Source of the DNA: a virus
Length of the DNA stretch: 64,000 nt
Reading direction: 5' to 3' (one strand)
IMG/VR virus record: IMGVR_UViG_3300033571_022960
Coordinates: 69,436 to 133,435 of that record
In this document: positions 3,462 through 44,296 of the stretch, piece by piece
How the letters are laid out: every line of letters starts with the position of its first letter
How positions within the stretch are numbered: position 1 is the first letter of the stretch
Made by a program: the position numbers and the translations under genes
Notes under the pieces: generated by a model
What the model saw: the letters and a program-made list of their open reading frames with translations, nothing else
Database searches by the model: none
What the model was told of the DNA's origin: nothing

Positions 3462-4022
3462 ATGAAAATTGGGATTATTACTCAAAAGGAATTTAAATTA
3501 TTTAATGAATACCCTTTACTATTTGAATATGGTGAATCCGATTACAATTTAATAATTGGTTATAATCTGGCAAAAGAATTAAATAAAAACACCAGTTTTT
3601 TAAATAATAAAATAAATAATAATACTTACTGGGTTTGGAGTGATGAAGAAAAACCTACTGATTCAAAAAAATTAACAATTAATATAATAAAACTTATAAT
3701 TGAAGAAATTATTAAGAATACAGAATATAAGGTGGTTGACCCAATCATTAATAAAATAACCAAAGAAAGTATAAAAAATTATTTCGCAAATAAAAATATA
3801 AACTACTACACCAAAATTGATAGAATGTTATTTCTTTATTATGAAAAGGAAATATTTGGTTTTGATTTGGAAGTTTTTAAATGGATGGATTGGAATATAA
3901 AGGAATTAATTGATTTTAAACCGTTAAAACCTTTTTTAATTGATGATAAATATTTGGATTTATTTACTGAAAAAAATAAAAAATATATACCAATTTTCTA
4001 CAGTAGTTTAAATAGAAAATAA
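3462..4022 (+). CDS. Hypothetical protein
   Basis: 186-aa ORF; TATATTTC box 5 nt upstream of ATG. Confidence 0.7.
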   Translation: MKIGIITQKEFKLFNEYPLLFEYGESDYNLIIGYNLAKELNKNTSFLNNKINNNTYWVWSDEEKPTDSKKLTINIIKLIIEEIIKNTEYKVVDPIINKITKESIKNYFANKNINYYTKIDRMLFLYYEKEIFGFDLEVFKWMDWNIKELIDFKPLKPFLIDDKYLDLFTEKNKKYIPIFYSSLNRK

Positions 4023-4348
4023 TTACCTGTATATAAACCACTATAATACTCTTCTAAATAAAATTTTAAATTAGATGGAATATGTATTGAATATAGTCCT
4101 TTTCTAGCACCATTGCCAACATAACACATTTTATAAAATAAAATAACCCTATTTTTACTTTTTAAAATATTAAAATCTTTTTTATTAATTTTTATACTTA
4201 AACCCAAATGACATTGCCCAAAACATTCTATTTCTGGATAAACATTTAAATTTTCTTTAAATAAATCAATATCTAAAAAAGAGTTATTTACGTTAAAGAA
4301 ACCGTTATTTGATTTTTGTAGATTAGTTATTGTTTTTTGCAAGTTCAT
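3998..4348 (-). CDS. KTLxNL family member 1
   Basis: Starts MNLQKTITNLQKSNNGFFN. Confidence 0.75.
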   Translation of the reverse strand: MNLQKTITNLQKSNNGFFNVNNSFLDIDLFKENLNVYPEIECFGQCHLGLSIKINKKDFNILKSKNRVILFYKMCYVGNGARKGLYSIHIPSNLKFYLEEYYSGLYTGNYFLFKLL

Positions 4349-4676
4349 ATTCTCCGATAAAAAGTTGATAGGATAAATTCATAATACCTGTATTTAATTT
4401 ATTTTTAAAAAAATATAAAATTTCAGCATGTTGATTCACCCATCCTTCGGGTCTAATCACTTGTTCTACTTTTATTTGAATTTTATAACAACAAGAATTA
4501 CCATTATCTTCTAAATTATTCCTATTTATTAGAAATACATTATATTCTCTATGTCCGTTTTTATACTTATAAAGTAAATTAACTTTAAAAGTATCAAAAT
4601 TAACAAAAAAATTTTCCATATTAAAAAAACCTGTTTTTGATTTTTTTAAATTATTTAATGTTTTTTGTAAGTTCAT
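4323..4676 (-). CDS. KTLxNL family member 2
   Basis: Starts MNLQKTLNNLKKSKTGFFN; close paralog of 9437-9757. Confidence 0.75.
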   Translation of the reverse strand: MNLQKTLNNLKKSKTGFFNMENFFVNFDTFKVNLLYKYKNGHREYNVFLINRNNLEDNGNSCCYKIQIKVEQVIRPEGWVNQHAEILYFFKNKLNTGIMNLSYQLFIGEYELAKNNN

Positions 4677-4836
4677 TTATCAATTTTTTTGCAGATTCTT
4701 TAAACTCTTCTTCTGTATATTCAGATTTTGGATAATATTTCACAATAACACCATCACCCATTAAAAGAAAAGAATCTTTATTATTGATTCCTTTACCCTC
4801 TGATAGTTTATATATTCTGTTTATAGATTTTTTCAT
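4651..4836 (-). CDS. Hypothetical protein
   Basis: 61-aa ORF overlapping both neighbours in an operon-like chain. Confidence 0.55.
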   Translation of the reverse strand: MKKSINRIYKLSEGKGINNKDSFLLMGDGVIVKYYPKSEYTEEEFKESAKKLINELTKNIK

Positions 4837-5005
4837 GTAAATAATAATAAATTAAAACTGTAAGAATAATTGGATTTAAAAAACAAAATAATAAAATTCT
4901 AAAAGGTTCATTTTCTTTTATAGCATACTCAATAGTTGTAAAAAACACCACAAAAAATAAAATTGAATATAAAATAATTAAAAATGTTATTAAACTAATA
5001 AACAT
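4808..5005 (-). CDS. Small membrane protein
   Basis: Two hydrophobic stretches; first gene of the minus-strand chain. Confidence 0.55.
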   Translation of the reverse strand: MFISLITFLIILYSILFFVVFFTTIEYAIKENEPFRILLFCFLNPIILTVLIYYYLHEKIYKQNI

Positions 5006-5139
5006 GGATTTTTTTTTACTAATTTAATAATTTTTTTTTAAAAAATCAAATTTTTATTAGAAAACAAAATATGATATATTTATTAAATAAAAATAGTACT
5101 ATTTAGTACCTTAATAAAAAAAGAAAAAAATAAGTAAAT

Positions 5140-5643
5140 ATGGCAAATTTAATAAATCCAATGCCAGGTAGTTTTGGAACTGCTAGTTTTGAACCGTTGA
5201 GGAAGAATAGATTCTTCTTGAGATTTGATTCTGCTCTTGGTATTGCAGAATGGTATGTTTCTACTGCTGAAAGACCTAAATTAAAGATAGATGAAACTGA
5301 AATTCAATACCTGAATGGTTCTACTTGGGTTGCAGGTAGGGCAGTCTGGGAGCCTATTACTGTTGTATTAAGAGACCCGATTGGTCCTAGTGCTACTCAA
5401 GCAACAATAGAGTGGGTTCGTTTGTGCTACGAAAGTGTAACAAATCGAAGCGGTTACGCAACTGGTTACAAGCGTAATGTTGATTTAGAAATGTTAGACC
5501 CAACAGGAGTACCAGTACAAAGATGGGTTTTACAAGGTACCTGGATTTCAAACGCAGATTATGGTAATTTAGATTACTCAAGTAGCGATATTGCTGATAT
5601 AACTCTAAATTTGCGTTTTGACCGAGCAATTAACGTTTTTTAA
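5140..5643 (+). CDS. Tail tube protein (T4 gp19-like)
   Basis: FEPLRKNRF...RPKL...GRAVWEPITVVLRDPIGPS..QA..EW...YKRNVDLEMLDPTG..VQRWVLQGTW...LDYSSSD pattern; late motif 5076-5083; terminator after. Confidence 0.85.
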   Translation: MANLINPMPGSFGTASFEPLRKNRFFLRFDSALGIAEWYVSTAERPKLKIDETEIQYLNGSTWVAGRAVWEPITVVLRDPIGPSATQATIEWVRLCYESVTNRSGYATGYKRNVDLEMLDPTGVPVQRWVLQGTWISNADYGNLDYSSSDIADITLNLRFDRAINVF

Positions 5644-5661
5644 TTTTTTATCAATATATTT

Positions 5662-5693
5662 AAAACCCATGCAAAGTTTGCATGGGTTTTTTT
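5662..5693 (+). terminator. Intrinsic terminator
   Basis: AAAACCCATGCAAA-G-TTTGCATGGGTTTT followed by a T run. Confidence 0.85.
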
Positions 5694-5781
5694 ATTTACT
5701 TTATATTAAAAATTCTTAAATTTAATTATGATTCAATGTAATGAATGTGTTAAAGAATTCAAAAACTAACAAAAATAATAT

Positions 5782-6789
5782 ATGCAAACTAATCAAACTA
5801 ATCCTATAATGCCCTTTTTAGAAGAAGAATTCAAATCCTTCAACATAGAACCCTTTACAGAAGTAGAATTCAAACCAGATGAATATATTAAAGAAATAGA
5901 ACAACAATTTCGTGATGGAATGACATGGGAAAATTATAATAAATTGTGGAAATTAATTTTTATTTTACCAAAAGAAACCTTCAATTTCAAAGATAATTTT
6001 TATAGAAGTTTAAAACAATATTTTTCAATAAATAATCTTTATCCAATATATATTGATGAAACAATAGAATACCCAGAAAATTTCCATTCAACTTGTTACC
6101 AGTATAAAACAAGATTTCAATCACAATATAAAGAAAAAAATATAATTGATTTTAATCCAGATAATGCAAATCTGAATAATACAATAATAAGGGAAATTTC
6201 TAAAAAAGAATGTACAAAGGTTGTTGAAAAATATGAATGGTTGGGTAAAATGAGTGGGTTTTCAAAATACCATTTTGGAATATATTTTTTAATTGATGGA
6301 AAAGAATATCTTGGTGGGGTTCTTGCATTTCAAAATGACTATGGTGAAAATACTGATGTATGGAAAAAGTATGACTTTAAAGGTGATATGATTTTATTAA
6401 GTAGAGGAGTTTGTTTATGGTGGACACCAAAGAATACTGCATCTTATTTTATATCGAAAACTTATAAATGGTTTTTGGATAACACAAATTATAGAATTTT
6501 AACTGCAACTACTGATTCAAGTGCAGGTGAAAGTGGGGTAATTTATTCTGCATTAAATTGGTTGGGTCTTGATATGAATAAACAAAAAACAAGAACTTCT
6601 GTAATAATTGATGGTAAAGAATATTCTGGTCGTTATATGAGAAAAAAATATGGAACAATGAAGGAAAGTATTATAAAGGAAAAATTTCCTAATGCAAGAT
6701 TTGTAAAAAGTCCAAGAAAAATTAGATATTTTTATTTTATTGGTAAAGATAAAAAGTATAATAAAATGAAGTTATTAAGTTATTCGTAA
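5782..6789 (+). CDS. Mom-like GNAT-fold protein (putative DNA modification acetyltransferase)
   Basis: C-terminal half: YHFGIYF..GGVLAF..LLSRGVC..KNTASYFISK..TTDSSAGESGVIYSALNW, matching the Mu Mom family pattern as recalled. Confidence 0.6.
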   Translation: MQTNQTNPIMPFLEEEFKSFNIEPFTEVEFKPDEYIKEIEQQFRDGMTWENYNKLWKLIFILPKETFNFKDNFYRSLKQYFSINNLYPIYIDETIEYPENFHSTCYQYKTRFQSQYKEKNIIDFNPDNANLNNTIIREISKKECTKVVEKYEWLGKMSGFSKYHFGIYFLIDGKEYLGGVLAFQNDYGENTDVWKKYDFKGDMILLSRGVCLWWTPKNTASYFISKTYKWFLDNTNYRILTATTDSSAGESGVIYSALNWLGLDMNKQKTRTSVIIDGKEYSGRYMRKKYGTMKESIIKEKFPNARFVKSPRKIRYFYFIGKDKKYNKMKLLSYS

Positions 6790-7070
6790 TATAAACAATA
6801 ATCTAATAAAGAATCATCTGATAAAAGAATGTTTTTAAAACAATAAACATCACTAAAAAAATCTATTTCTATAATCAGATTAAGTTGGTTATGTTTAAAA
6901 CCTGCACTGTTAATAAAAAATTCTTCTCTAAGTTCAAATGAATCATAATATTTTAAAACTGTATCATTCCTTAATAAATCAAAATTAATCCATATTCTAC
7001 CTTTATTTTGCAAATTAAAGAAAAAATTATGTGATTTCTTTAAATTTATTAATGTTTTTTGTAACTTCAT
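6780..7070 (-). CDS. KTLxNL family member 3
   Basis: Starts MKLQKTLINLKKSHNFFFN. Confidence 0.75.
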   Translation of the reverse strand: MKLQKTLINLKKSHNFFFNLQNKGRIWINFDLLRNDTVLKYYDSFELREEFFINSAGFKHNQLNLIIEIDFFSDVYCFKNILLSDDSLLDYCLYYE

Positions 7071-7399
7071 TTATTAAATTTTTTATAATATAAATTATAA
7101 TGTTTGGATAATTTATTTATATTATTTTTATGAAAATAATAACTTTTATTATTAATTATAAAACTATATTGGGATTTAAAAGTAAAATCTGAAACTATAA
7201 TATTATTCTTTTTAATATATAAAGGATAAGGTAGTAATTCTTTATTACAAACACCATCCATAATCCACATAAAAGTTCTATATTTAAAAATATCATAATT
7301 GATTGGAATAATAGGGTTATCATCATAAGGATTTATAAATAATCCAAATGGATAATCTTTAGTTTGTTTTAGATTTTTTAGTGTTCTTTTTAAATCCAT
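7067..7399 (-). CDS. KTLxNL family member 4
   Basis: Starts MDLKRTLKNLKQTKDYPFG. Confidence 0.7.
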   Translation of the reverse strand: MDLKRTLKNLKQTKDYPFGLFINPYDDNPIIPINYDIFKYRTFMWIMDGVCNKELLPYPLYIKKNNIIVSDFTFKSQYSFIINNKSYYFHKNNINKLSKHYNLYYKKFNK

Positions 7400-7677
7400 A
7401 CCGTTTTTTCCATTATTTTAATTACTTTTTCATCAAAAATAAAACCATATTTATAATAGTTTTTAAGTGAATTTAAAAGTTTTTCGTTTGTATCAGATTT
7501 GTTAATAATATATGCAATGATTATTCTATCAGAATCCTTTAATTCACTTTTATTTATTAAACCAACCAATTCATTGATAAAAAGTTTATATTCATCCTGA
7601 TTTAATTCAACAATTCTTATAAATTTTTTTAAAATATCATCCCTTTTTTGGGTTTTATATAGATTTATATTACTCAT
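7390..7677 (-). CDS. Hypothetical protein
   Basis: 95-aa ORF in the minus-strand chain. Confidence 0.6.
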   Translation of the reverse strand: MSNINLYKTQKRDDILKKFIRIVELNQDEYKLFINELVGLINKSELKDSDRIIIAYIINKSDTNEKLLNSLKNYYKYGFIFDEKVIKIMEKTVWI

Positions 7678-7680
7678 AAG

Positions 7681-7938
7681 TTAATGAAAATAAAAGAAAT
7701 AAATTAAAGTTTTAGATGGTTTTATATTTGGAATTTGATTTCTAAAAACAAATTTACCATCAAATTCTTTGTTAATTTTTATATTTTTTAAACCAGTAGA
7801 ATCATAAGTAGTAGGTATTATTGATTTTAATTCCATACCAATTTTCAATAAATCATGGTTAACCCAAACATCTTTAGGAATATTAAAGAAAGAATTATTT
7901 GATTTTTCTAAATTTATTAATGTTTTATTTAATTTCAT
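7681..7938 (-). CDS. KTLxNL family member 5 (start corrected to ATG7938)
   Basis: MKLNKTLINLEKSNNSFFN; the longer track start overlaps the upstream gene. Confidence 0.75.
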   Translation of the reverse strand: MKLNKTLINLEKSNNSFFNIPKDVWVNHDLLKIGMELKSIIPTTYDSTGLKNIKINKEFDGKFVFRNQIPNIKPSKTLIYFFYFH

Positions 7939-8254
7939 AATATAATTCTTTGTTATGGTCATAAGATGGATTAATAAAGTATTTATTGCCAAATAATGTA
8001 AAATAACATCTAACCCCATTAACCCCATTATATTTATTAAAACGTATTTCGGATAAATTTAAATAAATTGTTTCTTTAATCGTTTTTAAACGATTATCAC
8101 TAACCAAAAAATTTGAATTATTTCTAAGTATATCCAAAGAATTAATTTTTAAATATTCTTTATTAAGAAAAGATATTTTAAACTCACTTTTACCCAAATT
8201 AAAAGGATATTTTTTTGATTTCCTTAAATTTTCAATAGTTTTTTCTAAGTCCAT
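7925..8254 (-). CDS. KTLxNL family member 6 (start corrected to ATG8254)
   Basis: MDLEKTIENLRKSKKYPFN. Confidence 0.75.
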   Translation of the reverse strand: MDLEKTIENLRKSKKYPFNLGKSEFKISFLNKEYLKINSLDILRNNSNFLVSDNRLKTIKETIYLNLSEIRFNKYNGVNGVRCYFTLFGNKYFINPSYDHNKELYYEIK

Positions 8255-8326
8255 ATTAATAAATTTAAGAAAAATAATTGAATTTTTCAAATCTATGGTT
8301 ATATTTGTTAAAAATATTAATAAAAT

Positions 8327-8533
8327 ATGAAAAAACTTTATGATGCAATTCTTCTTCACTATATGAGTGAAAAACAAAAATCTCTTGCACATCTTGAAAT
8401 TCTTTTTAAGAATCCATGTGGAATTGGTGAACACTCTGATATTTTGGAAGAGGTTAAAAAATGGGTTGAAATTGGTGCAAATGCAGATGATTGTATTAAT
8501 TTCTTAAAAACTGAATTTAAAATTGAGGAATAA
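8327..8533 (+). CDS. Small conserved phage hypothetical protein
   Basis: NPCGIGEHSDILEE motif; TATATTTG promoter box near 8300. Confidence 0.7.
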   Translation: MKKLYDAILLHYMSEKQKSLAHLEILFKNPCGIGEHSDILEEVKKWVEIGANADDCINFLKTEFKIEE

Positions 8534-8536
8534 AAT

Positions 8537-8713
8537 ATGAACGAACAAACATTGGAACAAAAGTTGGATATTATGTATAATCTAACCAAACAAGTAAATT
8601 TAAAATATGATGAACATGCAATTTTGCAACAATATTATCAGGAATTAAAAAATTACTTTAAACAAGAAGGTTCAAAAAAAGAAATAAAAAATACTGTTGA
8701 AGATGTTAATTGA
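8537..8713 (+). CDS. Hypothetical 58-aa protein (below track cut-off)
   Basis: Manual translation MNEQTLEQKLDIMYNLTKQVNLKYDEHAILQQYYQELKNYFKQEG...; fills the gap. Confidence 0.6.
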   Translation: MNEQTLEQKLDIMYNLTKQVNLKYDEHAILQQYYQELKNYFKQEGSKKEIKNTVEDVN

Positions 8714-8921
8714 AAAAAAATATAATACAAATTTTTATCCTAAAGTTGGTGATAAATATTTTAATGGTGAAAAAATATTTATTAAAGGTGTAGGTGTTAG
8801 ACTTAAAAAGTCAAGATTTTATGATGAGTGTTATATTGTTTTTGATAAAAATTATTTTATTGCAAAGGATGGGAAAGGTAACTGGATTAATGGAAAATTA
8901 ACAAAAAAACCTTTAATGTGA
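8703..8921 (+). CDS. Hypothetical protein
   Basis: ORF with overlapping start/stop coupling. Confidence 0.6.
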   Translation: MLIEKKYNTNFYPKVGDKYFNGEKIFIKGVGVRLKKSRFYDECYIVFDKNYFIAKDGKGNWINGKLTKKPLM

Positions 8922-9427
8922 AAACAAGAATAATCAATCTTTTTGGGGGTCCAAATTGTGGAAAATCAACAATTGCATCGGGATTATTTTATAATCTTAA
9001 AATTCTTGATATTAATTCAGAACTTATATCAGAATATGCAAAAATTAAGGTTTGGGAAGGAAATGAAAAAACCTTAAAAAATCAAATATATTTGTTTGCA
9101 AAACAACATTTTGCAATTCATAATGTATTGGGTTTGGTTGATTTTGTCATAATGGATTCCCCACTACTTTTAAATCCGATATACGATAAACAACAATGTG
9201 AAATCTTTAAAACACTTTGTTTATCAGAACATAATAAATTAAATAATATTAATTTCTTTATTAAAAGAAATGATAAAACTTTTCAGGAAATTGGAAGAAT
9301 TCATAATTTAAAACAATCAGAAGTTTTGGATAAACAAATAAAAGATTTTCTTGAAAACAATCAAATTGATTACTATGAAGTAACAAATCTTGAGGAAATA
9401 CTTGAAAAATTAAAAAATTTTCTTTAA
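8918..9427 (+). CDS. P-loop nucleotide kinase-like protein (AAA_28/NadR-type)
   Basis: IINLFGGPNCGKST Walker A; ELISEYAK; VIMDSPLLL. Confidence 0.7.
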   Translation: MKTRIINLFGGPNCGKSTIASGLFYNLKILDINSELISEYAKIKVWEGNEKTLKNQIYLFAKQHFAIHNVLGLVDFVIMDSPLLLNPIYDKQQCEIFKTLCLSEHNKLNNINFFIKRNDKTFQEIGRIHNLKQSEVLDKQIKDFLENNQIDYYEVTNLEEILEKLKNFL

Positions 9428-9436
9428 TTTTATATT

Positions 9437-9757
9437 ATGGATTTGGAAAAAACATTAAATAATTTAAAAAAATCAAAAACAGGTTTTTTTAATATGGATA
9501 ATTTTTTTGTTAATTTTGATACTTTTAAACTTAACTTACTTTATAGATATAAAATATACGGTAGAGAATATTTTAACATAATATCTCAAAACGTGAATTT
9601 AGAATATGGTGGTGAGTCATGTTATAGATTTACACAAGAACTTGTACATGAAAGACATGTTTTATATATTTTTAAAAATAAATTTTTCAAAGAAACAATG
9701 ACTTTATCCTATCAACTTTTTATCGGAGAATATGAACTTGCAAAAAACAATAACTAA
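9437..9757 (+). CDS. KTLxNL family member 7
   Basis: MDLEKTLNNLKKSKTGFFN. Confidence 0.75.
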   Translation: MDLEKTLNNLKKSKTGFFNMDNFFVNFDTFKLNLLYRYKIYGREYFNIISQNVNLEYGGESCYRFTQELVHERHVLYIFKNKFFKETMTLSYQLFIGEYELAKNNN

Positions 9758-10049
9758 TCTACAAAAATCAAGATATTCTTTTTTTAATATAAATGAAGAA
9801 GTCTGGGTTAATCTTGATTTATTTAAACGAGATTGTAAATATAGATTTTATTTGGATGTCAATAAAATAGAGTATAGTGAATGTAAAATTGATAATACTA
9901 ATAATTTAATTGAAAGTTTTTATGGTACTGTTTTATATAAAAAAATGGATGATTATCCATTAACACATATTTACATTTCTAAAAATAAAATTGATTATGA
10001 TTTTATGAGAAAACATGGTTTAGATTATTTTTTAGTGTTAGGGAAATAA
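9732..10049 (+). CDS. KTLxNL family member 8
   Basis: MNLQKTITNLQKSRYSFFN. Confidence 0.75.
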   Translation: MNLQKTITNLQKSRYSFFNINEEVWVNLDLFKRDCKYRFYLDVNKIEYSECKIDNTNNLIESFYGTVLYKKMDDYPLTHIYISKNKIDYDFMRKHGLDYFLVLGK

Positions 10050-10191: not shown

Positions 10192-11034
10192 ATGAGAAAA
10201 GTAGTTTTAGATGAAGATATGGAGAAAGATATTGTTTCTTTGTATTGTGATATGCAAATAGGTATTGAGGAACTTTGTAAAACCTATTCGGTAGGTAAAT
10301 TAAGAATTAAAGAAATTTTAAATAAACATTCCATACCTATTAAAAAAAGAGGTGCTCAAAATATGTTTAGTGAGGAAGTTAATTTAACTGAATTTAAAGT
10401 TCCACCATTTATTATTGAATGTGATGAAAATGAAAAGGTTGTTGCAGTTTGCAAAAAAACTGGAAAACAATTTAATGATTACTCAAATAAAAGTGGTGCA
10501 TTATCTAAATATTATAAAGAAAATTTTCCTGAAATAGAAATTCCTACTGATAATATTCCTATTAAAAAATATTTCTTAGAAAATGGTAAAAATTGGTTTG
10601 AAGAATATTTTGATTTTAAGATAATTAAATTAAAAGAAACAAAGAAATGTCCTTATTGTGATTGGGAGACAACTGATATAGATAATAAAAGTGGTTATTT
10701 TCAAAAACACATAAAAAAAGTACATAATATAAATCCAGAAGATTACTTAAAAGAATATCCTAACGATATAAAATATTTTACAAATTTAAAAAATAATAAA
10801 GAAAGAATAGAAAAATTATCCAAAAATGATACAATTAAGTGTGAAATATGTGGTGAAGAAATGTTATTTATTGCTGGACATTTAATAAAACATGAAATTA
10901 CAATATCTGAATACAAAGATATGTTCCCAAATGCAAAAATAATGGGTTTAAATACTAAAGAATTGTTAAAAGAAATGGGATTCGTTAAAATTTATAATTG
11001 TGGTTTATTTAGATATGTATTAGATTTAAATTAA
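10192..11034 (+). CDS. Zinc-finger protein, probable internally deleted homing-endonuclease-associated relic
   Basis: CPYC..H...H and CEIC..H..H fingers; C-terminal GFVKIYNCG; no clear nuclease core; sits next to the capsid gene. Confidence 0.5.
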   Translation: MRKVVLDEDMEKDIVSLYCDMQIGIEELCKTYSVGKLRIKEILNKHSIPIKKRGAQNMFSEEVNLTEFKVPPFIIECDENEKVVAVCKKTGKQFNDYSNKSGALSKYYKENFPEIEIPTDNIPIKKYFLENGKNWFEEYFDFKIIKLKETKKCPYCDWETTDIDNKSGYFQKHIKKVHNINPEDYLKEYPNDIKYFTNLKNNKERIEKLSKNDTIKCEICGEEMLFIAGHLIKHEITISEYKDMFPNAKIMGLNTKELLKEMGFVKIYNCGLFRYVLDLN

Positions 11035-11083: not shown

Positions 11084-12805
11084 TTATCTTAATTCATTAA
11101 GATTGAAGGTTTGAACCCCATCAACCGTAATTTTACCGTAAAATCGGTTATTGACAACTTTTTTCGCGTATCTTGATGCAATACCCTTTACAGGTGTCAT
11201 AGTAAATGGATTATACATTACAGGAGTTAATTGTAATGGCACATAAGGTGCATAAATATAACCAGCATCTAACAATGATTTACCTTTATGACCAATCAAG
11301 ATAGTATTAGCAGGTGAATAAGGGTCACGGTAAACCGTGTAACGACCACTCAAAGAACCTACTTTCTCAATACCCATGTTATATTGGTCCTCTTCAGGTG
11401 CTGCGTTAGAAACGTGGAAATATTCCAAATCGTCAAGAATTGCAGATACCTCAGAAGATACAACGATAAAGTTAGCACCACCTCTCAAAGTAGATTTATG
11501 GATTTGAGCAGAGATTTGATTGATTTTAGTCATCAAAGTCTGATTCCAATCTTTTTGAGTGTAAGGTGTAAAACCGTTAGTACTAGAACGTTTCCAACCA
11601 TTATAGTCCCAACGTAATTTCCAAGCGGCAGCCTTACGTAAGTCACGTAAAATTTCACGGTCAATCTCAGCAGCAATTTGTTCTGATAATAGAGCAGTCA
11701 ATTCTGCTTCAGCATCAATGTTGTGGAATGCACTAACATCTTGCGCCATTTCAGGAGACCAAGTTGCTCTTAATTTTCTATCAGTAACAGCAACAGTTAC
11801 AGACTCAATGTCAAAAGTAACTTCTGCAATTTCTGCTTCAAATTCTAATGAATCATAAACTTTATAAGTAACTGTCAATGCAGATAAAGCAGGAACAGTA
11901 GAACCAGTATAACCAGTCACATCATCACAGTCAAAACAAGCAGGACTAGACAAATCTAATTCAATATAAAGTTTACCTTCTTGGTCACAAATATCGAAAT
12001 AAGATGCACTACCGAATTTAGAACCTGTACCACGAGTGTTAGCAACAATAGATTTACCGTATTTTTGAGTTACAACTCTAAAATCAACAACTGCATTACT
12101 ATTTGCAGTGTTAACAACCTTTAAAGATGCCAAAAATTCTTCGGTATCCATTTCATTACCACGACCATCTAATATTTTACCATAACCATCACTATTATTA
12201 ACAGTAAAACCAGTTAATTCTACAATTGCATATTTTGCAGTTGTACCAGCAATACTTGCAGGAACAGTATTTCCTGATGCATTTAAAGTAACATAACGAC
12301 TAGCGGTTAAATTAACAGTAGTTGCTTTACCTTTAGTTCTGTCGAATAAAGAATTATCATAATCTGATTCTTGATAGAAACTGTCATACAAAGATTTAGT
12401 TTCATAAGCAGGACCACCAGTAGTATTTGGCCAACCGTAAGGTTTGTCATGAGAACCATCAGAATTTCTTACAGAAATCTTAGGGTTAAAGTAGAACAAT
12501 TTACCGATTGGTAAGTTCATTGCTTGAACTGAAACGATGTCATTTGCCAAAAGTTTAGAGAATACTCTACGTACAATTGGGAATACAACTGTTTCAAATG
12601 AACCTGAACTATCAGTAGTAGTTGCTTCATTGATTAGGTATGATGCTTGGTTTTCATACAATTGAGCAATGTTTTCTTTTAAATGACCTTTAAGACCATC
12701 TAAGAAACCTGCTTCATCCCACTTGCGAATAGTGGTTTTTCTCGCCTCTTTAATTTGGTTTAATCCGATATTTCCGAATTCACCACTTGATAAAATACTT
12801 CCCAT
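11084..12805 (-). CDS. Major capsid protein (T4 gp23-like)
   Basis: VSVQAMNLPIGKLFY, RKLRATWSPEMAQD, AEIDREI, YIYAPYVPL, GIASRYA motifs; INE/A propeptide-type site. Confidence 0.95.
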   Translation of the reverse strand: MGSILSSGEFGNIGLNQIKEARKTTIRKWDEAGFLDGLKGHLKENIAQLYENQASYLINEATTTDSSGSFETVVFPIVRRVFSKLLANDIVSVQAMNLPIGKLFYFNPKISVRNSDGSHDKPYGWPNTTGGPAYETKSLYDSFYQESDYDNSLFDRTKGKATTVNLTASRYVTLNASGNTVPASIAGTTAKYAIVELTGFTVNNSDGYGKILDGRGNEMDTEEFLASLKVVNTANSNAVVDFRVVTQKYGKSIVANTRGTGSKFGSASYFDICDQEGKLYIELDLSSPACFDCDDVTGYTGSTVPALSALTVTYKVYDSLEFEAEIAEVTFDIESVTVAVTDRKLRATWSPEMAQDVSAFHNIDAEAELTALLSEQIAAEIDREILRDLRKAAAWKLRWDYNGWKRSSTNGFTPYTQKDWNQTLMTKINQISAQIHKSTLRGGANFIVVSSEVSAILDDLEYFHVSNAAPEEDQYNMGIEKVGSLSGRYTVYRDPYSPANTILIGHKGKSLLDAGYIYAPYVPLQLTPVMYNPFTMTPVKGIASRYAKKVVNNRFYGKITVDGVQTFNLNELR

Positions 12806-12824: not shown

Positions 12825-14099
12825 TTAGGAATTTTTATTGAACGTAAAGTTCATTAATTGTTTCATTCTTTCTGTTTGAGGGTCACGATATACAGTTTCC
12901 CCAATCAGTTGTTTACTTGTACCACTTGCAATTTGTTTATCAATATTCTCAACGATATTTTGTGATTTTGATTTTTGTTTCATTTCATTCATAATTTGTC
13001 TATAAATGTTTTTTGATTCTTTTAAATCAGTAACACCTTCAAAACGTTTAACAATATCAATTTTTTCTTGCTTAGTAGTTGTATTTTCTGTGAAAAGTCT
13101 AATCATGTGTGAAAAATTAGAATTAAATACTGCAACTTCATTTAGTTTTCCTCTAAAATGATTTAATGCAGATTTATATTCTTCATTTAAACTTTTGAAT
13201 TTAGAAAGGGTTTCTTTAAGTTCTTTGTTTTCATTCTTAATTTTAACCATTTCTTTTTTCAATTCCACACTTTCATTAGTTCTTTCAGCAGGTCTTTTTA
13301 ATTTATCAGGAAAAGACTTATCTTTAGAAACCATCTTTCTACCATTTGAGTGGGTTCTTGATGCTTCTTCCAAATCATCCATTTCATCTAAATCAATTTC
13401 TTCAATTTCATATACAGATTCTTGTGTTGGTTCTGTTTCTTCACTTCCAAAAAGTAAATCCATTTTTTCTGAATCTTCATCTTCTGAAAGTTCAATTTCA
13501 TAAACCAAATCTGATTCATCCATATCCATGTCAATGTCTTTACCTTCTTCTGATTCAGTTCTAATTAAGTATTCTTCATCACCATCACGTAATGAAATAT
13601 CCCCACCATCCTGGTGAACTTCAATTTCATCATCTGCAGTCATTTTCTTGAATACTTTAACTATTTCTTCATCATTCATTTGGGTTAAGTCCATAACACC
13701 ACCATCATCAACTAAAGAATCTTCTAAAGAAGGTGAGGGTAATTCTGAATCCAAATCTGATACTTCTGAATCAACATCTAACATTGGAGTTTCATCTGAA
13801 ACTTCATCTGACATTGGTTCATCTAATGATGGTTCTATTTCTGTCGCATCAGAAACTTCTTCATCTGTTTCTACATCACCCATGTTAACATCAGTATCAA
13901 CTTCTGTTTCATCATTTTCGGTGTCTGTGTTGTCTTTTTCTTCATCATCCAATTCAGTCACTAAAGACTCTTTTACAAGTTGGTTAATTTCTTCTCTCAT
14001 TTGTGATTGAAGTGTTTCTTTTACTTGTTTCTTGAAGATTTTCTCGATTTGCGATGCTTCGAGTAATGCCTCTTCAATTACGGATTTTTTTTCACTCAT
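12825..14099 (-). CDS. Prohead core/scaffold protein (start corrected to ATG14099)
   Basis: Highly acidic with a coiled-coil C-terminus, directly upstream of the capsid gene; late motif 14152-14159. Confidence 0.8.
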   Translation of the reverse strand: MSEKKSVIEEALLEASQIEKIFKKQVKETLQSQMREEINQLVKESLVTELDDEEKDNTDTENDETEVDTDVNMGDVETDEEVSDATEIEPSLDEPMSDEVSDETPMLDVDSEVSDLDSELPSPSLEDSLVDDGGVMDLTQMNDEEIVKVFKKMTADDEIEVHQDGGDISLRDGDEEYLIRTESEEGKDIDMDMDESDLVYEIELSEDEDSEKMDLLFGSEETEPTQESVYEIEEIDLDEMDDLEEASRTHSNGRKMVSKDKSFPDKLKRPAERTNESVELKKEMVKIKNENKELKETLSKFKSLNEEYKSALNHFRGKLNEVAVFNSNFSHMIRLFTENTTTKQEKIDIVKRFEGVTDLKESKNIYRQIMNEMKQKSKSQNIVENIDKQIASGTSKQLIGETVYRDPQTERMKQLMNFTFNKNS

Positions 14100-14250
14100 T
14101 TTAAATATTTGTAAAAAATTAAAAATTATGTTGCATTGCAACGATTATGATATAAATATATCGTTTTTTGAAAAATTCTATTTTTTATAAAAAAAATTAA
14201 AATATTTTTTTGCAATTGATTTTATGAAAAAAAAATTGTAGTTTTGTTAA

Positions 14251-14496
14251 ATGAAAACTTTTTTTGAAATATCTGAATTAAAAGAATCAAAAAATAAAGA
14301 TTGGGTTATAGATATTCTAAACCGTTTTGGATTGAGTACAACCAATTATAGTTTATCTTATAAAAACAACCAAGTAGTTATTTACTCTGGTAATCATAAA
14401 ATTATTTCAAAAGAAATAAACGGTAAAACCCAATACGAAATGTATTCACAAATACCACCACTTCATAAACATCCAAAAAAAACAATTATTATATGA
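14251..14496 (+). CDS. Hypothetical protein
   Basis: 81-aa ORF; TAGTTTTG box 4 nt upstream. Confidence 0.65.
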   Translation: MKTFFEISELKESKNKDWVIDILNRFGLSTTNYSLSYKNNQVVIYSGNHKIISKEINGKTQYEMYSQIPPLHKHPKKTIII

Positions 14497-15590
14497 AAGA
14501 AATACAAAACTCAATAACATTCTATACCTCATCTTTTGAGGATTTGGTTTTTCTTTATGAAAGAGAAAGACAAATTAATTTAAAATATAAAAAAAGTTTC
14601 AATAATGTTAATCTAACTAAGTTTGATGAAAAGTGGGGTAAATATACATTTAAAGAATCAGATTATTCATATTTAAAAAATAAAGAATTAAAAGTTTCTC
14701 TTTTTAATAAATTTTATATTATTAACGAAACTTTGGAACTATCCAAAGAAAATAAAGTTGATAAAACTATTTATCTTTTTACAAAAGACAGTTATGAAAA
14801 CTCTGGAAAAATAAGTAGATTTATTTTGTTTTATGAACAAGAAACTGATTTAGTTAAGGAAATAATAAAGGATATTATTAATTGTATGGAGGATTTGGAA
14901 AAAACTGAAAAATCAACATTAAATATTATTATTGATGATGGTGGAAATTTAAGATTAAAACCATTTCAAATTTCTTCAAAGGAAATTAATTTTGATAAAC
15001 ATTATAATAAATCATGCAAAGAATTTGTTGATGAATTATTGGATAAAGTTAAATTGGAAAAAGGTTTATTCTTAATGCATGGAAAACCTGGGACTGGTAA
15101 AACATCCCTAATAAGATGGATTATTAGTGTTTTAGATAAAAAAATGATTTATATTCCACCTGAAATGACAAGTGTAATATCAAATCCAAATTTCATTAAA
15201 TTTTTAATGAACCATCCAAAATCAATTCTTGTTATTGAGGATGCTGAAACCGTATTAATGAAAAGAACAAGTGGTGGAAGTTCTGCAATTCAAAATATCT
15301 TAAATCTTTGTGATGGTTTATTGTCTGATATGTTGCAAATACAAGTTATTGCAACTTTTAATACCGATATTAAGGATATTGACCCTGCATTATTAAGACC
15401 TGGTAGATTAAATGGTATATACGAATTTAAGGAATTGGATGATGATATTGCAAAAAATTTATGTCATGAATTGGGTGTTGATTTCGATTCTTTAAGGGAA
15501 AAAACTTTGGCAGAAATCTTTAATTCAAATGATAAATTTTCTTTTAACAAAAAGGTTGTTAGAAAATCAATTGGTTTCTCAAGTAAATAA
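14493..15590 (+). CDS. AAA+ ATPase
   Basis: GKPGTGKT Walker A, LVIEDAE Walker B, DPALLRPGRL second region of homology. Confidence 0.85.
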   Translation: MKEIQNSITFYTSSFEDLVFLYERERQINLKYKKSFNNVNLTKFDEKWGKYTFKESDYSYLKNKELKVSLFNKFYIINETLELSKENKVDKTIYLFTKDSYENSGKISRFILFYEQETDLVKEIIKDIINCMEDLEKTEKSTLNIIIDDGGNLRLKPFQISSKEINFDKHYNKSCKEFVDELLDKVKLEKGLFLMHGKPGTGKTSLIRWIISVLDKKMIYIPPEMTSVISNPNFIKFLMNHPKSILVIEDAETVLMKRTSGGSSAIQNILNLCDGLLSDMLQIQVIATFNTDIKDIDPALLRPGRLNGIYEFKELDDDIAKNLCHELGVDFDSLREKTLAEIFNSNDKFSFNKKVVRKSIGFSSK

Positions 15591-19027: not shown

Positions 19028-20184
19028 TGAAAATTAATATAAATAATTTAAAAATAACACCAAAAAATTTAGTAAATAAATTTCAATTATCGGTTTTTAA
19101 TCCTGATGATGAGATTTTAGAATGGGTAAAATATCACAATTTTCAGAATAATTCTGATAAAGGGTTTTTAAATATTGAAATAAATAAACCTTTAGAAGAA
19201 TTATTTTTAGAATTACCACATTTTAGTTATATTGATGGTTTTTCACCAAATCTCAATAAAAAATTACATATAGGACATTTTTCCAATTTTGTTATTGCAA
19301 AAAGTTTTGTTAATTTAGATATTGCAGAAAATCTAATTTCTATTTATGGTGATACATTAGAAGGATTATCAAAAGAAGAATCTTTAGTAAATTTAAGAAA
19401 ATATCAAGAACTTTTTAATTTTAAACCTCAAAAAGAATTTTTTGCATCAGAAATGAATTATTCTGATTTATTAAAAGAAGGTGATGGTGATTATAAAGGT
19501 TGTAAAATATTTGATATTGATGGAGAAAAAATTGTTGGTATAAAAAGTAATGGTAATTCTTCTTATTTTTATCAAGATGTTGCACTTGCAAGTATTCTGA
19601 ATAAACCAACCATTTATTTAACTGGTCATGAACAAACTAATCATTTTAATTCATTAAAAAAATTATTTCCATATATTCATCATATTGGTTTAGGTTTAGT
19701 TAAAGTATCAGGTAAAAAAATGAGTTCTCGTGAGGGTAATGTTTTATTAATGGAAGAAATTTTAGATATTATTTATAATGAATTTAATGATTATGAATTA
19801 ACTTATAATATATTTGCAGGTAACATATTAAAATCAAATCCAGAATCTGATAAAAACATTGATTTAAATTTATTGTCAAATCCAAAAAATAGTTTAGGTT
19901 TATATATTTCTTATACAACTGCACGTCTAATATCCGCTGGTTGTGATTTAAATTATAATTTAAATGATGAAGAATTGGAATTTTTATTATATAAATCAAA
20001 ATTTAATTTAAAACCAAATATACTTTTTAATGGTTTGGTTGATTATTGTAAAATGGTTAATTTAAAATATTCTGAATTAAAAATAAAGGATAATCCTGAT
20101 AATAAAAAATTATTTGAAAATTATTTGGGTAATATAAATTATTGTTTACAAATATTAGGTTTATTTTTGATTAAAAAAGTATGA
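19024..20184 (+). CDS. argS: Arginyl-tRNA synthetase-like protein (truncated)
   Basis: SPNLNKKLHIGH, YFYQDVA, GHEQTNHF, KKMSSREGN; only 386 aa. Confidence 0.75.
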   Translation: MMKININNLKITPKNLVNKFQLSVFNPDDEILEWVKYHNFQNNSDKGFLNIEINKPLEELFLELPHFSYIDGFSPNLNKKLHIGHFSNFVIAKSFVNLDIAENLISIYGDTLEGLSKEESLVNLRKYQELFNFKPQKEFFASEMNYSDLLKEGDGDYKGCKIFDIDGEKIVGIKSNGNSSYFYQDVALASILNKPTIYLTGHEQTNHFNSLKKLFPYIHHIGLGLVKVSGKKMSSREGNVLLMEEILDIIYNEFNDYELTYNIFAGNILKSNPESDKNIDLNLLSNPKNSLGLYISYTTARLISAGCDLNYNLNDEELEFLLYKSKFNLKPNILFNGLVDYCKMVNLKYSELKIKDNPDNKKLFENYLGNINYCLQILGLFLIKKV

Positions 20185-20427: not shown

Positions 20428-20599
20428 TCTTGCAAAGGATTTTAATTTTCCCTTTGGTACATCAAAATACGGTTGTCATGTTGTATATGGTGAAAAAAAA
20501 TCATCCATTAATTATATAAATATTACAAAACCAACTGAATTTAATGATGAAGAAAATACCACAGTAAACATTGATGATTTACCACTTTCTTTAAATGAA

Positions 20600-20827
20600 A
20601 TGGAAAGAATTATTAATGAATGTGAAAAAAAGTATTTATTAAAAATAAAAATACCTAAAAATTATACTATAAATAATAAACCTGTTTTTATTTTTATAAA
20701 TACAATTATTAATTGGCAACAAGTTTCAATAGAAAATAATAAGTATTATCATTTCTCAATACCTGATGGTTTGCAAGATGGTTTATTGAGAAAGGAATGT
20801 AATTTGGATGAAATTTTGGTTTTTTAA
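20600..20827 (+). CDS. Hypothetical protein (frame is open upstream to 20414)
   Basis: 75-aa ORF with 62 additional open codons upstream. Confidence 0.55.
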   Translation: MERIINECEKKYLLKIKIPKNYTINNKPVFIFINTIINWQQVSIENNKYYHFSIPDGLQDGLLRKECNLDEILVF

Positions 20828-20863
20828 TTTGACTTTCTAAAAAATTTTATTTAAATTGTAATT

Positions 20864-21414: not shown

Positions 21415-21831
21415 ATGAAAACAAAATTTAACGAAGATTTAAAATCCGCAATGAAGGAAAAAAATACTATTAAAACCCAAACAATCAGGGGTATTTTAAC
21501 CGAGATTATGAAAGTAGAAAAAACAAATGGTTCTGAAATAACAGAAGATAAATTGAATTCACTTCTAAAGAAATTATATTCACAAAGGGAAGAATCTGCA
21601 AAGATTTATAAATCATCAAACAGAATGGATTTATTTGAAAAAGAAAATGCAGAACTATTAATTCTTAAAGAATATCTTCCTAAAGAAATTCCTTTTGATG
21701 AACAAAAAACTTTTGTTGATAATTTACTTGCAGAAAAAGGATTAAAACCATCTGATATGGGTTCAATAATGAAATTGATTCCAAATAATTACAATAAAAA
21801 ATTAATTTCTGAATACTTAAAAAGTTTGTAA
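21415..21831 (+). CDS. GatB/YqeY domain protein
   Basis: LKSAMKEKN..TIRGIL..KK..QREES..Y...R.DL.EKE.AEL.IL.EYLP pattern. Confidence 0.85.
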   Translation: MKTKFNEDLKSAMKEKNTIKTQTIRGILTEIMKVEKTNGSEITEDKLNSLLKKLYSQREESAKIYKSSNRMDLFEKENAELLILKEYLPKEIPFDEQKTFVDNLLAEKGLKPSDMGSIMKLIPNNYNKKLISEYLKSL

Positions 21832-22130
21832 TGAAAAAAGAACTTATAAAAAGTGAATTAAAAGGTATATTAGGTTATGGTGTTTCATACGATGAAATTC
21901 TAATTGTATTGAATGAATTGATTAGTGAAGAAAAACAGAAAATTAAAGAAAAAATTTATGTTATAGATTTGGAAGGTGATATTATATTCAATGGAACATT
22001 TAAAGAATGTGAAAAATTTATAAAAAAAAATATAATAATGGAAAAAAATAAAAAAGAATATGGTCTATCAACACCTACTGAATCTAATATAGTCTTATAT
22101 TATAGTTCAGAATTTTCACATCTTTTTTAA
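21831..22130 (+). CDS. Hypothetical protein
   Basis: 99-aa ORF coupled to YqeY. Confidence 0.6.
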   Translation: MKKELIKSELKGILGYGVSYDEILIVLNELISEEKQKIKEKIYVIDLEGDIIFNGTFKECEKFIKKNIIMEKNKKEYGLSTPTESNIVLYYSSEFSHLF

Positions 22131-36865: not shown

Positions 36866-36904
36866 TAATTTGATTTTGTCAAAAATTTTTATTATATTTT
36901 ATCC

Positions 36905-39730: not shown

Positions 39731-39750
39731 TATTTATTAGATAAAAAATT

Positions 39751-42154: not shown

Positions 42155-42198
42155 TATAATTATTTGATATTTTCGTTTTTTTTTCTTATCTTTATCGT

Positions 42199-42507
42199 AT
42201 GGTACTTGAAAATACTTTGGATAATTTAAGAAAAAAACGTTTTTTTAATCTGGTTGGTAAGAAAGTTTTGGTTAATCTTGATACTTATTTTGCAAATGGT
42301 AAAATTGTTAAATTTGATAAAGGTATTGGTTATGCAAACCAAACTGGTGAAAATAAGGAAAGTTTTTTAATTTCATTTGATAAAAATAAAATTGATGATA
42401 AGGGTTTATATATTTGGTTAAATTATAATGAAAATGGTAATTACATAGGTAATGGTTATTGTCGTTATTTTACCGAAAATCAAATAAATTTTAATGAATT
42501 TAAATAA
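42199..42507 (+). CDS. KTLxNL family member 11
   Basis: MVLENTLDNLRKKRFFN. Confidence 0.7.
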   Translation: MVLENTLDNLRKKRFFNLVGKKVLVNLDTYFANGKIVKFDKGIGYANQTGENKESFLISFDKNKIDDKGLYIWLNYNENGNYIGNGYCRYFTENQINFNEFK

Positions 42508-42751
42508 AACAATAGAAAATTTAAGAAATTCAAAGTCAAGATTTTTTAATCTTGGTGAAGTTATACTGACAGAAGATTTGGTTAAAATAGGGATTATTTT
42601 TAGAAGAAGTCCTGATTATGAACAATGTGAAATTATTAAAAATGATGGAAAATATATTGATTCATTTTTCAAATACAAAAATGAATTTTTGGAAGTTAGA
42701 TATTCATATCCAAAAAATCAATTATACAAATACAAAATAAAATTTAAATGA
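42494..42751 (+). CDS. KTLxNL family member 12
   Basis: MNLNKTIENLRNSKSRFFN. Confidence 0.75.
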   Translation: MNLNKTIENLRNSKSRFFNLGEVILTEDLVKIGIIFRRSPDYEQCEIIKNDGKYIDSFFKYKNEFLEVRYSYPKNQLYKYKIKFK

Positions 42752-43410
42752 AAAAATTTGTAATTGGTGATATTCACGGAGAATTGGCAAAATTAAAATC
42801 AGTTTTGGAAAAATCCTCATTTGATAAGGATGTGGATTTATTGATAACTTTGGGGGATTATGTTGATAGGGGTTTGGATTCATTTGGGGTGGTTGAGGAA
42901 TTATTAACCGTTAAAAATAGAATTTCATTAATGGGAAATCATGATTATTGGTTTTTGGAATATATAAATTCTGGGATTCATCCAGCGGAAATTTATGGAA
43001 GAAACACAATAAAATCATATAATGGTGAAATACCGCAAACCCATAAAGAGTTTTTTAATTCCCTATTACCTTATTATGTTGATGATGAAAATCGTTGTTT
43101 TGTTCATGGAGGATTTAATAGACATTTTAAAATTGGGGAACAATACATGAAAGATATATATTGGTGGGATAGAGACCTTTTTGCAATTGCACTTTCGCAC
43201 CCAAAAGAAAATAAGTTAAAAACAAAGGAAAATTTTTCCGAAATTTATGTTGGTCACTCACCAACACAACTTTGGTATAAAGATACACCAATAAATGCAA
43301 ATATTATGTGGAATTTGGATACAGGTTGCGGAAAAAAGAATATAAATGGAATGGAAACAAAGTTAACAATAATGAATTTGGAAACAAAAGAATTTTGGCA
43401 AAACAATTAA
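42748..43410 (+). CDS. Calcineurin-like metallophosphoesterase (Ser/Thr phosphatase type)
   Basis: GDIHG, GDYVDRG, GNHD, HGG, VGH. Confidence 0.85.
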   Translation: MKKFVIGDIHGELAKLKSVLEKSSFDKDVDLLITLGDYVDRGLDSFGVVEELLTVKNRISLMGNHDYWFLEYINSGIHPAEIYGRNTIKSYNGEIPQTHKEFFNSLLPYYVDDENRCFVHGGFNRHFKIGEQYMKDIYWWDRDLFAIALSHPKENKLKTKENFSEIYVGHSPTQLWYKDTPINANIMWNLDTGCGKKNINGMETKLTIMNLETKEFWQNN

Positions 43411-43411
43411 A

Positions 43412-43672
43412 ATGAAAATTAACAAAACATTAAATAATTTAAAAAAATCAAAAAACGGTTTCTTCAACGTAAGTGGTAGGAGAAGTATTACATTTGATAT
43501 ATTAAAAAATGAATTAATATTTTATTTTAAATCACCTTATGGTGTTTATCGAATTTACTTTAATAAAAATTCACTACAATCAATAGGAAGGGATTATTTC
43601 ACATACAATAATTGGTTGTTAAATATTAAAGATTATTATAATAATGATTATTATGTTCCTTATATAAAATGA
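43412..43672 (+). CDS. KTLxNL family member 13
   Basis: MKINKTLNNLKKSKNGFFN. Confidence 0.75.
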   Translation: MKINKTLNNLKKSKNGFFNVSGRRSITFDILKNELIFYFKSPYGVYRIYFNKNSLQSIGRDYFTYNNWLLNIKDYYNNDYYVPYIK

Positions 43673-43699
43673 ATAGAAAGAAATAAAATTTTATAAAAA

Positions 43700-44002
43700 A
43701 TGAATTTAAATAAAACAATAAAAAATTTAAGAAAATCAAATAAATCCTTTTTTAATATTACTTATAAGTGTTATATAAATTTGGATTTATTAAAAGAAGG
43801 AATTGAATTTTATTTTAAGGTGGAATATAAAAAATTTAAATACACATATAAAAAGTGTGGAATACGTGAATTATATCTAATACGTGAATTATATCTAACC
43901 CATTCTTTTTATTTGGTTAATAAATATGGTCATTATTATCCTTATGTGTATAAAAATGAAATTTTTAAAAATAACAAAAATTTTTACATGTTTTTAATTT
44001 AA
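43700..44002 (+). CDS. KTLxNL family member 14
   Basis: MNLNKTIKNLRKSNKSFFN. Confidence 0.75.
   Translation: MNLNKTIKNLRKSNKSFFNITYKCYINLDLLKEGIEFYFKVEYKKFKYTYKKCGIRELYLIRELYLTHSFYLVNKYGHYYPYVYKNEIFKNNKNFYMFLI
43861..43898 (+). repeat. 18-bp tandem duplication (IRELYL x2)
   Basis: aatacgtgaattatatct x2. Confidence 0.9.
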
Positions 44003-44008
44003 AATAAA

Positions 44009-44296
44009 ATGAAACTGAATAAAACAATAGAAAATTTAAGAAATTCAAATAAATCCTTTTTTAATTTGAAAAAAGGGGATGTTATTAATTTTGATTTATT
44101 GAAATCTGAAATAAAATTTTATATGAATATAGATAAGATTGTTTATAATTGGAAAAAAGAAAAATTATTAAGATATGTTAGTGATAGATTTTCTTGTTAC
44201 TACACAGTTAATAAATATGGTGATTATTATCCTTATGTTCAAATAAATGAATTAATAATGATTGAAGAAATTTTTTTTATGAGATTAGTTAAATAA
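44009..44296 (+). CDS. KTLxNL family member 15
   Basis: MKLNKTIENLRNSNKSFFN. Confidence 0.75.
   Translation: MKLNKTIENLRNSNKSFFNLKKGDVINFDLLKSEIKFYMNIDKIVYNWKKEKLLRYVSDRFSCYYTVNKYGDYYPYVQINELIMIEEIFFMRLVK

Follow-up and report, generated by a model that had tools for sequence, protein, structure and literature searches.

Large phages devote a sizeable share of their genomes to expanded families of tiny proteins without an assigned role. The T-even internal proteins form a diverse, defence-countering set in which a common constant N-terminal peptide is carried by otherwise unrelated bodies (PMC3012670). The promoter-early stem-loop (PeSL) elements of T4-type phages are described, in the passages cited, as short intergenic repeats that flank small accessory genes and provide crossover points for their shuffling (PMC2839356, PMC4122927). 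Bacillus phage G includes about 35 copies of a zinc ribbon (PMC7824862). The family reported here, which has features in common with each of these, was found in the final 64 kb of the 133,435-nt IMG/VR virus contig IMGVR_UViG_3300033571_022960. This stretch (positions 69,436 to 133,435 of the record) is referred to below as the window, and coordinates are those of the window unless marked as genome positions. The contig has a completeness estimate of 41%, and the GC content of the window is 21–32%. The source, an uncultured and very AT-rich virus, is a distant T4-type phage, as judged by the presence of a gp23-like capsid protein, a gp19-like tail tube protein and a gp21-type prohead protease. 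The family includes about 20 copies of a small gene whose products share a module of ~33 residues, always at the extreme N-terminus, and is real, under selection and uncatalogued.

The T-even internal proteins (IPI, IPII, IPIII and the polymorphic ip loci) with their capsid targeting sequence are the closest functional analogue, sharing with the family the type of phage, a small size, a basic charge and a constant N-terminus on unrelated bodies. However, the module of the family has ~33 residues rather than ~10, and the (L/I)xE site at a fixed position that defines the internal proteins is not present, though the phage has a T4-type protease and makes use of such sites in a polyprotein. In addition, the family has no similarity to the T4 sequences, its ~20 copies are dispersed on both strands, and no candidate late-promoter motif precedes its genes. 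As with PeSL in the reports cited, the repeated sequence is a crossover point between variable genes, with edges at codon ~4 of one gene and codon 13 of another (genes A and B below). However, in the family the opening 100 nt of the gene itself make up the repeat, which is under selection at the protein level and has unrelated DNA upstream. The small-domain expansion of phage G is similar in that many diverged copies of one small domain with no assigned role are found in a single large phage. It differs in that the domain of the family is uncatalogued, its conservation lies at the extreme N-terminus, and recombination between copies is seen directly.

Members of the family on the contig

The original prediction listed 15 open reading frames (ORFs) in the window that share an N-terminal consensus. 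All 15 are open from the predicted start and encode products of 85–117 aa (Table 1); the start codon is ATG in 14 cases and TTG in the 18147 copy. At 24% GC a stop is expected every ~11 codons, and the chance that 85–100 random codons remain open is ~1e-4. The shared consensus was recovered in the form MxLxKT(L/I)xN(L/I)xK(S/T)KxSFFN-x6-8-Nx(D)(L/I)(L/F)K, and M1, T6, N9, L10, F18 and D28 are invariant in an alignment of the 15 products.

A hidden Markov model (HMM) search, proposed with the prediction, was performed using a profile of the first 40 residues against a six-frame translation of the whole contig. The 15 ORFs scored 45–72 bits. Further clear members were found outside the window at genome positions 20566–20835 (-), 19773–20036 (-) and 57761–58024 (+), and three more copies are degenerate, being truncated or retaining only the first ~13 residues. 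Hence, the 133-kb contig carries 18 clear copies and 3 degenerate ones. The 15 genes occupy 7.3% of the window and, as had been claimed, are clustered on both strands among core genes, lying in runs of small genes between conserved modules.

Selection on the constant module

The module consists of a predicted amphipathic helix at residues 3–13, with a heptad formed by L3, L7 and L10 and the invariant residues T6 and N9, followed by SFFN and then by (V/I)NxD(L/I)(L/F)K. Its best-conserved residues are polar (T6, N9, S/T13, K14 and N19). The 60 nt 5' of the copies are unrelated to one another, and similarity begins exactly at the ATG. Nucleotide identity was compared by codon position in 15 copies, after exclusion of the 42199 copy, which has a shorter module, and of one copy from each recent duplicate. 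Over codons 2–20 the mean pairwise identity at the first, second and third codon positions is 0.68, 0.84 and 0.57, respectively, as compared with about 0.33–0.40 in the bodies, and the Leu, Thr, Phe and Asn codons of the module vary synonymously. The lowest conservation at the third position and the synonymous variation indicate that selection on the peptide maintains the module. The possibility that only the DNA of the constant segment is conserved, which had been named as an outcome that would refute a protein-level role, is thus not borne out.

Synonymous codon identity at conserved residues is nevertheless 0.78, as compared with 0.64 expected from the codon usage of the contig (the observed value being reached in 0.04% of simulations, P = 4e-4), and TCA encodes Ser13 in 13 of 13 copies. 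This excess could come from shared descent, from gene conversion or from a constraint at the mRNA level.

Homologues in other phages

A profile was searched exhaustively against 1.84 billion representative proteins and gave 75 matches with a cut-off of E<=1e-3. About 20 of these are from the contig itself and one, a protein of 1107 aa, is noise, leaving ~54 other proteins (clusters), encoded on other metagenome contigs. All of the latter are 41–135 aa in length and match from residue 1–3. Thus, in no case does the module lie inside a protein or form part of a larger fusion. Taken over this broader set, the consensus becomes MxLxKTLxNLRK(S/T)KESFFNLxxxxxxNxDLLKKxL, and among 81 sequences T6 is conserved in 78, N9 in 80, F18 in 76 and N19 in 74. 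The outside homologues keep the peptide at an overall identity of 20–40%.

Several homologues appear to share contigs. The longest contigs of P0020, P0031 and P0047 are all 69,100 nt in length and are probably one contig; P0015 and P0016 (both 5,205 nt) probably share a contig, as P0018 and P0040 (both 6,100 nt) appear to do. P0014 and P0076 come from contigs of 173 kb and 109 kb, respectively. A related phage, L004 (IMGVR_UViG_3300033571_019537; 82 kb, 21–26% GC), has two family genes side by side.

The statement in the original prediction that no described family could be recognised holds for Pfam, PHROGs, PADLOC and PDB. The Pfam scan, which covered 49 proteins of the window, gave no match to the family. 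PHROGs gave matches to single members only (best E 6.6e-4), PADLOC gave nothing above threshold (best E 0.031), and the best E value in a sequence profile search of PDB was 4.3. No member was found in GenBank phage records, and the literature search revealed no described family of this kind. A word-indexed protein search returned only the contig's own or already known members. Scans of viral contigs with a degenerate DNA pattern, with two alignments that proved too variable (A1 and A2), with the A4 alignment and with P0076, P0020 and P0023, as well as two metagenome scans, gave nothing useful. A genome scan produced a lone Acidobacteriota match to residues 43–78, which was judged spurious. The distribution is best explained by a lineage-specific expansion within one clade of T4-like phages that are uncultured and very AT-rich.

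Variable bodies and predicted fold

Beyond residue ~33 the products diverge. In an all-against-all BLAST comparison, 48 of 77 bodies were singletons and the remainder fell into twelve small groups. When eleven body groups were compared by hhalign, 53 of the 55 pairs were at noise level, the two exceptions having only the last ~20 residues in common. The earlier view that the sequences are not alignable past ~35 aa is therefore close to right. It does not extend to the C-terminal end, where about half of the products retain a block of three hydrophobic residues followed by K, N, any residue and I or L (as in IFKNxI). This block lies 15–25 residues before the end in 38 of 72 full-length members, as compared with 20 +/- 3.7 (maximum 34) in shuffled sequences. 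Another subset ends in YxHIPxx(L/I)xxY...YLLKLxK. The bodies are rich in Tyr, Phe and Lys, as had been noted, and also in Asn; this composition is what AT-rich codons give. The proteins are basic (median pI 9.5; pI >8 in 71 of 81) and have no membrane segment.

Some bodies have relatives in other phages: that of the 18147 copy in P0020 and P0052, that of the 21064 copy in P0031 and P0035, and those of the 4676 and 9437 copies in P0016, P0046 and P0059. Hence, the paralogs are older than the split of these phages and body types have been retained. A member is best explained as a soluble protein of about 80–120 aa composed of the constant module, a hypervariable, β-rich and indel-rich middle, and a weakly conserved C-terminal strand-loop-strand.

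Structure prediction, another check proposed with the original prediction, was run with AlphaFold2. With an alignment of 70 sequences, the 9732 copy gave a model with a predicted local distance difference test score (pLDDT) of 79.8 and a predicted template modelling score (pTM) of 0.62. It comprises a helix at residues 3–13, an extended conserved segment with FFN and NxDLF, and six short strands together with a second, short helix. A single fold common to all bodies is plausible. Foldseek found nothing at E<=0.001 in PDB and BFVD. A comparison with 48,161 chains using VIA-align peaked at Z 3.4, the neighbours being small barrels of the SAWADEE, Tudor, chromo, PWWP and Sm types. For model residues 24–105 these include SAWADEE 4iup_A (Z 3.4, root-mean-square deviation 4.3, 63 residues aligned), Tudor 6if4_A (Z 2.9) and LSm 3swn_B (Z 2.8). 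As these values are far under the level regarded as meaningful for the tool (8), the likeness to SH3, Tudor, chromo and Sm-type barrels is, by this calibration, one of general shape and not a sign of relationship. A low-confidence ESM Atlas model (pLDDT 0.41) had uninformative structural neighbours. No full-length model matches a known domain. The other outcome named as refuting, that all full-length structures match one known domain, is thus not borne out either.

Recombination at the module

The pairs 4676(-)/4348(-) and 9437(+)/9732(+) form an inverted duplication, and the first and second genes of each pair are referred to as A and B. The two pairs align as a mosaic of nearly identical and unrelated blocks (Table 1). 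In block 2, a perfect run of 69 nt (9703–9771) covers the final 55 nt of gene A and the first 13 codons of gene B. Both outer edges of homology in the duplicate lie inside constant modules, one in gene A and one in gene B. These positions are what homologous exchange between modules would leave, and the module also acts as a crossover site. The alternative put forward in the original prediction, that the constant DNA is a recombination handle for cassette exchange, is directly supported by these edges, and synonymous codons are also somewhat more alike than expected. Given the selection at the protein level, recombination is a consequence of the module and not its purpose.

In the recent A pair, nonsynonymous and synonymous divergence (dN and dS) are 0.09 and 0.17 in the module and 0.13 and 0.19 at the C-end, as compared with 0.92 and 0.40 in the middle. 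The raised dN in the middle points to diversifying change or to a second exchange, though it is a weak hint, as this segment has 32 codons with biased, near-saturated synonymous sites and an uncertain alignment.

A further trace is seen outside the window, where a gene at genome positions 21776–22117 (L001:2777–3118) combines the first 12 family codons with an unrelated body rich in Ser, Thr and Tyr. This 12-codon stretch is nearly identical at the DNA level to that of the 57761 copy. The gene is flanked by PD-(D/E)xK-like exonuclease and gp47/SbcD-like genes, as assigned by eye. No recombinase or hairpin site was found alongside the family genes.

Gene context and timing

Neighbours of the family genes encode Mom-like, AAA_28, MucR-type zinc-finger and YqeY proteins, a deoxynucleoside monophosphate kinase, an AAA ATPase (14493–15590) and a calcineurin-like phosphoesterase. 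Of these, the phosphoesterase, the kinase, the AAA ATPase and the Mom-like protein are non-structural. A gene for a scaffold-like acidic protein (12825–14141) adjoins the capsid gene.

Table 1. Positions of the family genes, of the mosaic blocks in the inverted duplication and of other features in the window.
Feature	Position	Strand	Remarks
Family member, 116 aa	3998..4348	-	Gene B of left inverted pair
Family member, 117 aa	4323..4676	-	Gene A of left inverted pair; 26-nt overlap with gene B
Family member, 96 aa	6780..7070	-	
Family member, 110 aa	7067..7399	-	Divergent module, YPFG in place of SFFN
Family member, 85 aa	7681..7938	-	
Family member, 109 aa	7925..8254	-	
Family member, 106 aa	9437..9757	+	Gene A of right inverted pair
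Family member, 105 aa	9732..10049	+	Gene B of right inverted pair; modelled with AlphaFold2
Family member, 111 aa	18147..18482	+	TTG start; body orthologues P0020, P0052 in other phages
Family member, 112 aa	21064..21402	+	Body orthologues P0031, P0035
Family member, 102 aa	42199..42507	+	Module shorter by two residues ahead of FFN
Family member, 85 aa	42494..42751	+	
Family member, 86 aa	43412..43672	+	
Family member, 100 aa	43700..44002	+	
Family member, 95 aa	44009..44296	+	Body related to 43700 member
Mosaic, upstream of right gene A			43% identity to left pair, the level of unrelated DNA here
Mosaic block 1	9448..9554		95% to reverse complement of 4559–4665; begins at codon ~4 of gene A
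Mosaic, between blocks	9555–9656		55%, 33 gap columns
Mosaic block 2	9696..9771		96% to reverse complement of 4309–4384
Mosaic, 55 nt after 9771			62%
Mosaic, past those 55 nt			49%; the two B bodies are unrelated
gp19-like tail tube protein	5140–5643		
gp23-like major capsid protein	11084–12805	-	Best matches in uncultured huge phages and Flavobacterium phages, 31–41% identity
gp21-type prohead protease, PF03420	33092–33793	-	
ATATTTAT, example sites	5076, 14152(-), 24486(-), 33803/33814, 34120, 38171(-)/38192, 39730		

The motif ATATTTAT occurs 35 times in the window, on both strands, and is found 6–57 nt (10–21 nt in ten cases) 5' of 13 non-family genes, several of them identified as structural or late-type. 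These include the genes for the tail tube, the scaffold, the prohead protease, an amidase-like protein and several large proteins without a Pfam match. No family gene is preceded by it. The motif is a candidate late promoter, reminiscent of TATAAATA in T4, and its absence from the family genes agrees with, but does not prove, non-late expression.

Three further features of the window were noted. Between the tail tube gene and a family array, at 5782–6789 (+), there is a gene for a Mom-family protein (PF25680, E 3.5e-20) with an N-terminal extension of 130 residues. The gene at 10192–11034 (+), next to the capsid gene, encodes 280 aa and includes a zinc-finger region of the ROS/MucR type (PF05443, E 4e-6). 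Shortly after the last family gene, a GC-rich island of ~200 nt (44440–44640) stands out in the 24% GC genome; no Rfam family matched it at E<=1, and in folding energy it does not surpass shuffled sequences (z 0.04 and -0.96 for the two strands).

Function of the family

The reading preferred here, to which about an even chance is given, is that of an early or middle accessory-protein family in which a shared docking or structural module is combined with diversified barrel bodies. The proteins would be made early or in mid-infection and would act inside the cell rather than in the virion. The constant module would give all copies one contact, which may be a shared partner, a fold nucleus or an oligomer interface, while the diversified surfaces of the barrels would address different targets, as in a host-takeover or counter-defence set. 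Exchange of bodies at the constant 5' sequence would be a by-product that speeds diversification. The suggestion in the original prediction that a constant peptide docks diverse bodies on one partner gains from the strictly N-terminal position of the module, from the all but invariant T6, N9 and N19, and from the presence of 12 codons of the module on an unrelated body, but it falls short in that no partner was identified.

A number of points weigh against this reading. Neither a partner nor a target or activity was identified for the family. The early or middle timing follows from the absence of one candidate promoter motif and from the gene neighbourhood only, and some members abut late genes, namely those for the tail tube and the major capsid protein. 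A host-type promoter of the Bacteroidota type, TAnnTTTG, was also considered and dropped, as exact motifs were found at the heads of three runs only and are frequent by chance at such a composition. In a model of the 18147 copy the secondary structure of the module agrees with that in the 9732 copy, but the body is poor (pLDDT 60), and the module may either be packed on the barrel or form a free tag. Finally, the comparison with relatives at the DNA level covered one locus, L004.

The likeness to internal proteins raises another explanation, namely that the module is a capsid targeting sequence. By this view, ~20 diversified, small basic proteins would be loaded on the scaffold core and then injected along with the phage DNA to counter defences. 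In its favour, the T4-like phage encodes a capsid protein of the gp23 type, a protease of the gp21 type and a scaffold-like acidic protein; the family proteins are small and basic like IPI–III, and a constant N-terminus on unrelated bodies is as described for the T-even set (PMC3012670). Moreover, the contig encodes a polyprotein with (L/I/V)xE and then a constant tag at the junctions between its modules, and the lineage thus seems to invest in processed cargo. However, [LIV]xE is found within residues 1–50 of only 29 of the 81 members, at 17 scattered positions and in no more than eight members at any one, and the module is unlike the polyprotein tag SLNLKSRAxxQEKQ when compared by eye. The module is also three times the size of the T4 sequence and has predicted structured elements, the candidate late motif is missing, and there is no Pfam match to internal-protein families. 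A role as head cargo is judged improbable. Somewhat less doubtful, though still not expected, is an ordinary small domain with no shared partner, in which the N-terminal 33 residues and the C-terminal strands form the folding nucleus, the middle drifts fast, being weakly constrained and exposed to strong AT mutation pressure, and the copies are largely redundant. A second conserved block at the C-end, the compact model of the 9732 copy and a body composition that is the outcome of AT-rich codons all fit such a domain, and small-domain expansions are known in large phages, the zinc ribbons of Bacillus phage G being one example (PMC7824862). On the other hand, polar residues are the best conserved, which is atypical of a folding core, and individual body types are retained across phages. 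In the recent pair dN exceeds dS in the middle and not in the flanks (32 codons, near saturation), and the first 12 codons are found on an unrelated body too.

That the constant 5' sequence is mainly a recombination site in a DNA-level cassette system, with its coding content secondary, is very unlikely. The homology edges of the inverted duplicate within modules, including the perfect run that reaches as far as codon 13 of gene B, the excess of synonymous identity and the uniform Ser13 codon would be expected of such a site. They have to be set against the third codon position being the least conserved and the variable Leu, Thr, Phe and Asn codons, against the outside homologues that keep the peptide at low overall identity, and against the lack of a recombinase or hairpin site with the genes, the repeat not being intergenic as PeSL is. 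In multi-precursor systems of ribosomally synthesised and post-translationally modified peptides (RiPPs), many paralogs have a constant N-terminus and a hypervariable remainder. The family fits this pattern, and the module could on these grounds be a leader for one modifying enzyme that acts on hypervariable cores. This is scarcely credible, as the bodies have 50–85 residues and are predicted to fold, no double-glycine or other conserved cleavage motif is present, and no radical SAM, YcaO, LanM-type, processing or export gene was detected by Pfam among the 49 window proteins.

A more far-reaching proposal is that the module is a portable docking tag that would bring ~20 different mini-barrels to one phage or host machine, the phage renewing this set by swapping bodies at the coding sequence of the tag. 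Such a machine might be, for instance, a phage AAA ATPase, a mixed oligomer formed by the paralogs or, in the case of injection, the prohead core. This proposal is speculative and is considered unlikely. If true, the family would stand beside the T-even capsid-targeting system as a second such system, of independent origin and with cassette exchange built in, and the module would offer a means of finding the common partner and a natural scaffold by which proteins could be loaded or targeted in very AT-rich phages. If the module is not a docking tag, the family adds to the record of a feature that recurs, unexplained, in big phages. It lends itself unusually well to dissection, as the module at the free N-terminus is sharply bounded and has invariant polar residues, old paralogs have orthologues in other phages, and recombination edges are visible.

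Other loci in the phage and in L004

Modular proteins in which units are joined at (L/I/V)xE followed by (S/N)LNLKSRAxxQEKQ are encoded at genome positions 5566–9795, outside the window, and at L004:13737–15506 (-). The LNLKSRAxxQEKQ tag is conserved between the large polyprotein of this contig and the protein of L004.

Directly 5' of the two family genes in L004, the segment 4364–9468 includes genes for a Cas3 HD-helicase (PF18019, PF22590) and Cas6 (PF01881), two unassigned genes and a repeat array with a 66-nt period and 2.5 copies. It looks like a phage-borne type I CRISPR-Cas locus. A Cas12f/TnpB-type fragment is found at L004 11670–12071.

At 58378–60850 (-) in the window, the gene for a nicotinamide/nicotinate phosphoribosyltransferase (PF04095, PF18127) adjoins that for a weakly ribose-phosphate pyrophosphokinase-like protein. 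The two are presumably an NAD salvage pair of the kind used by phages against NAD-depleting defences.

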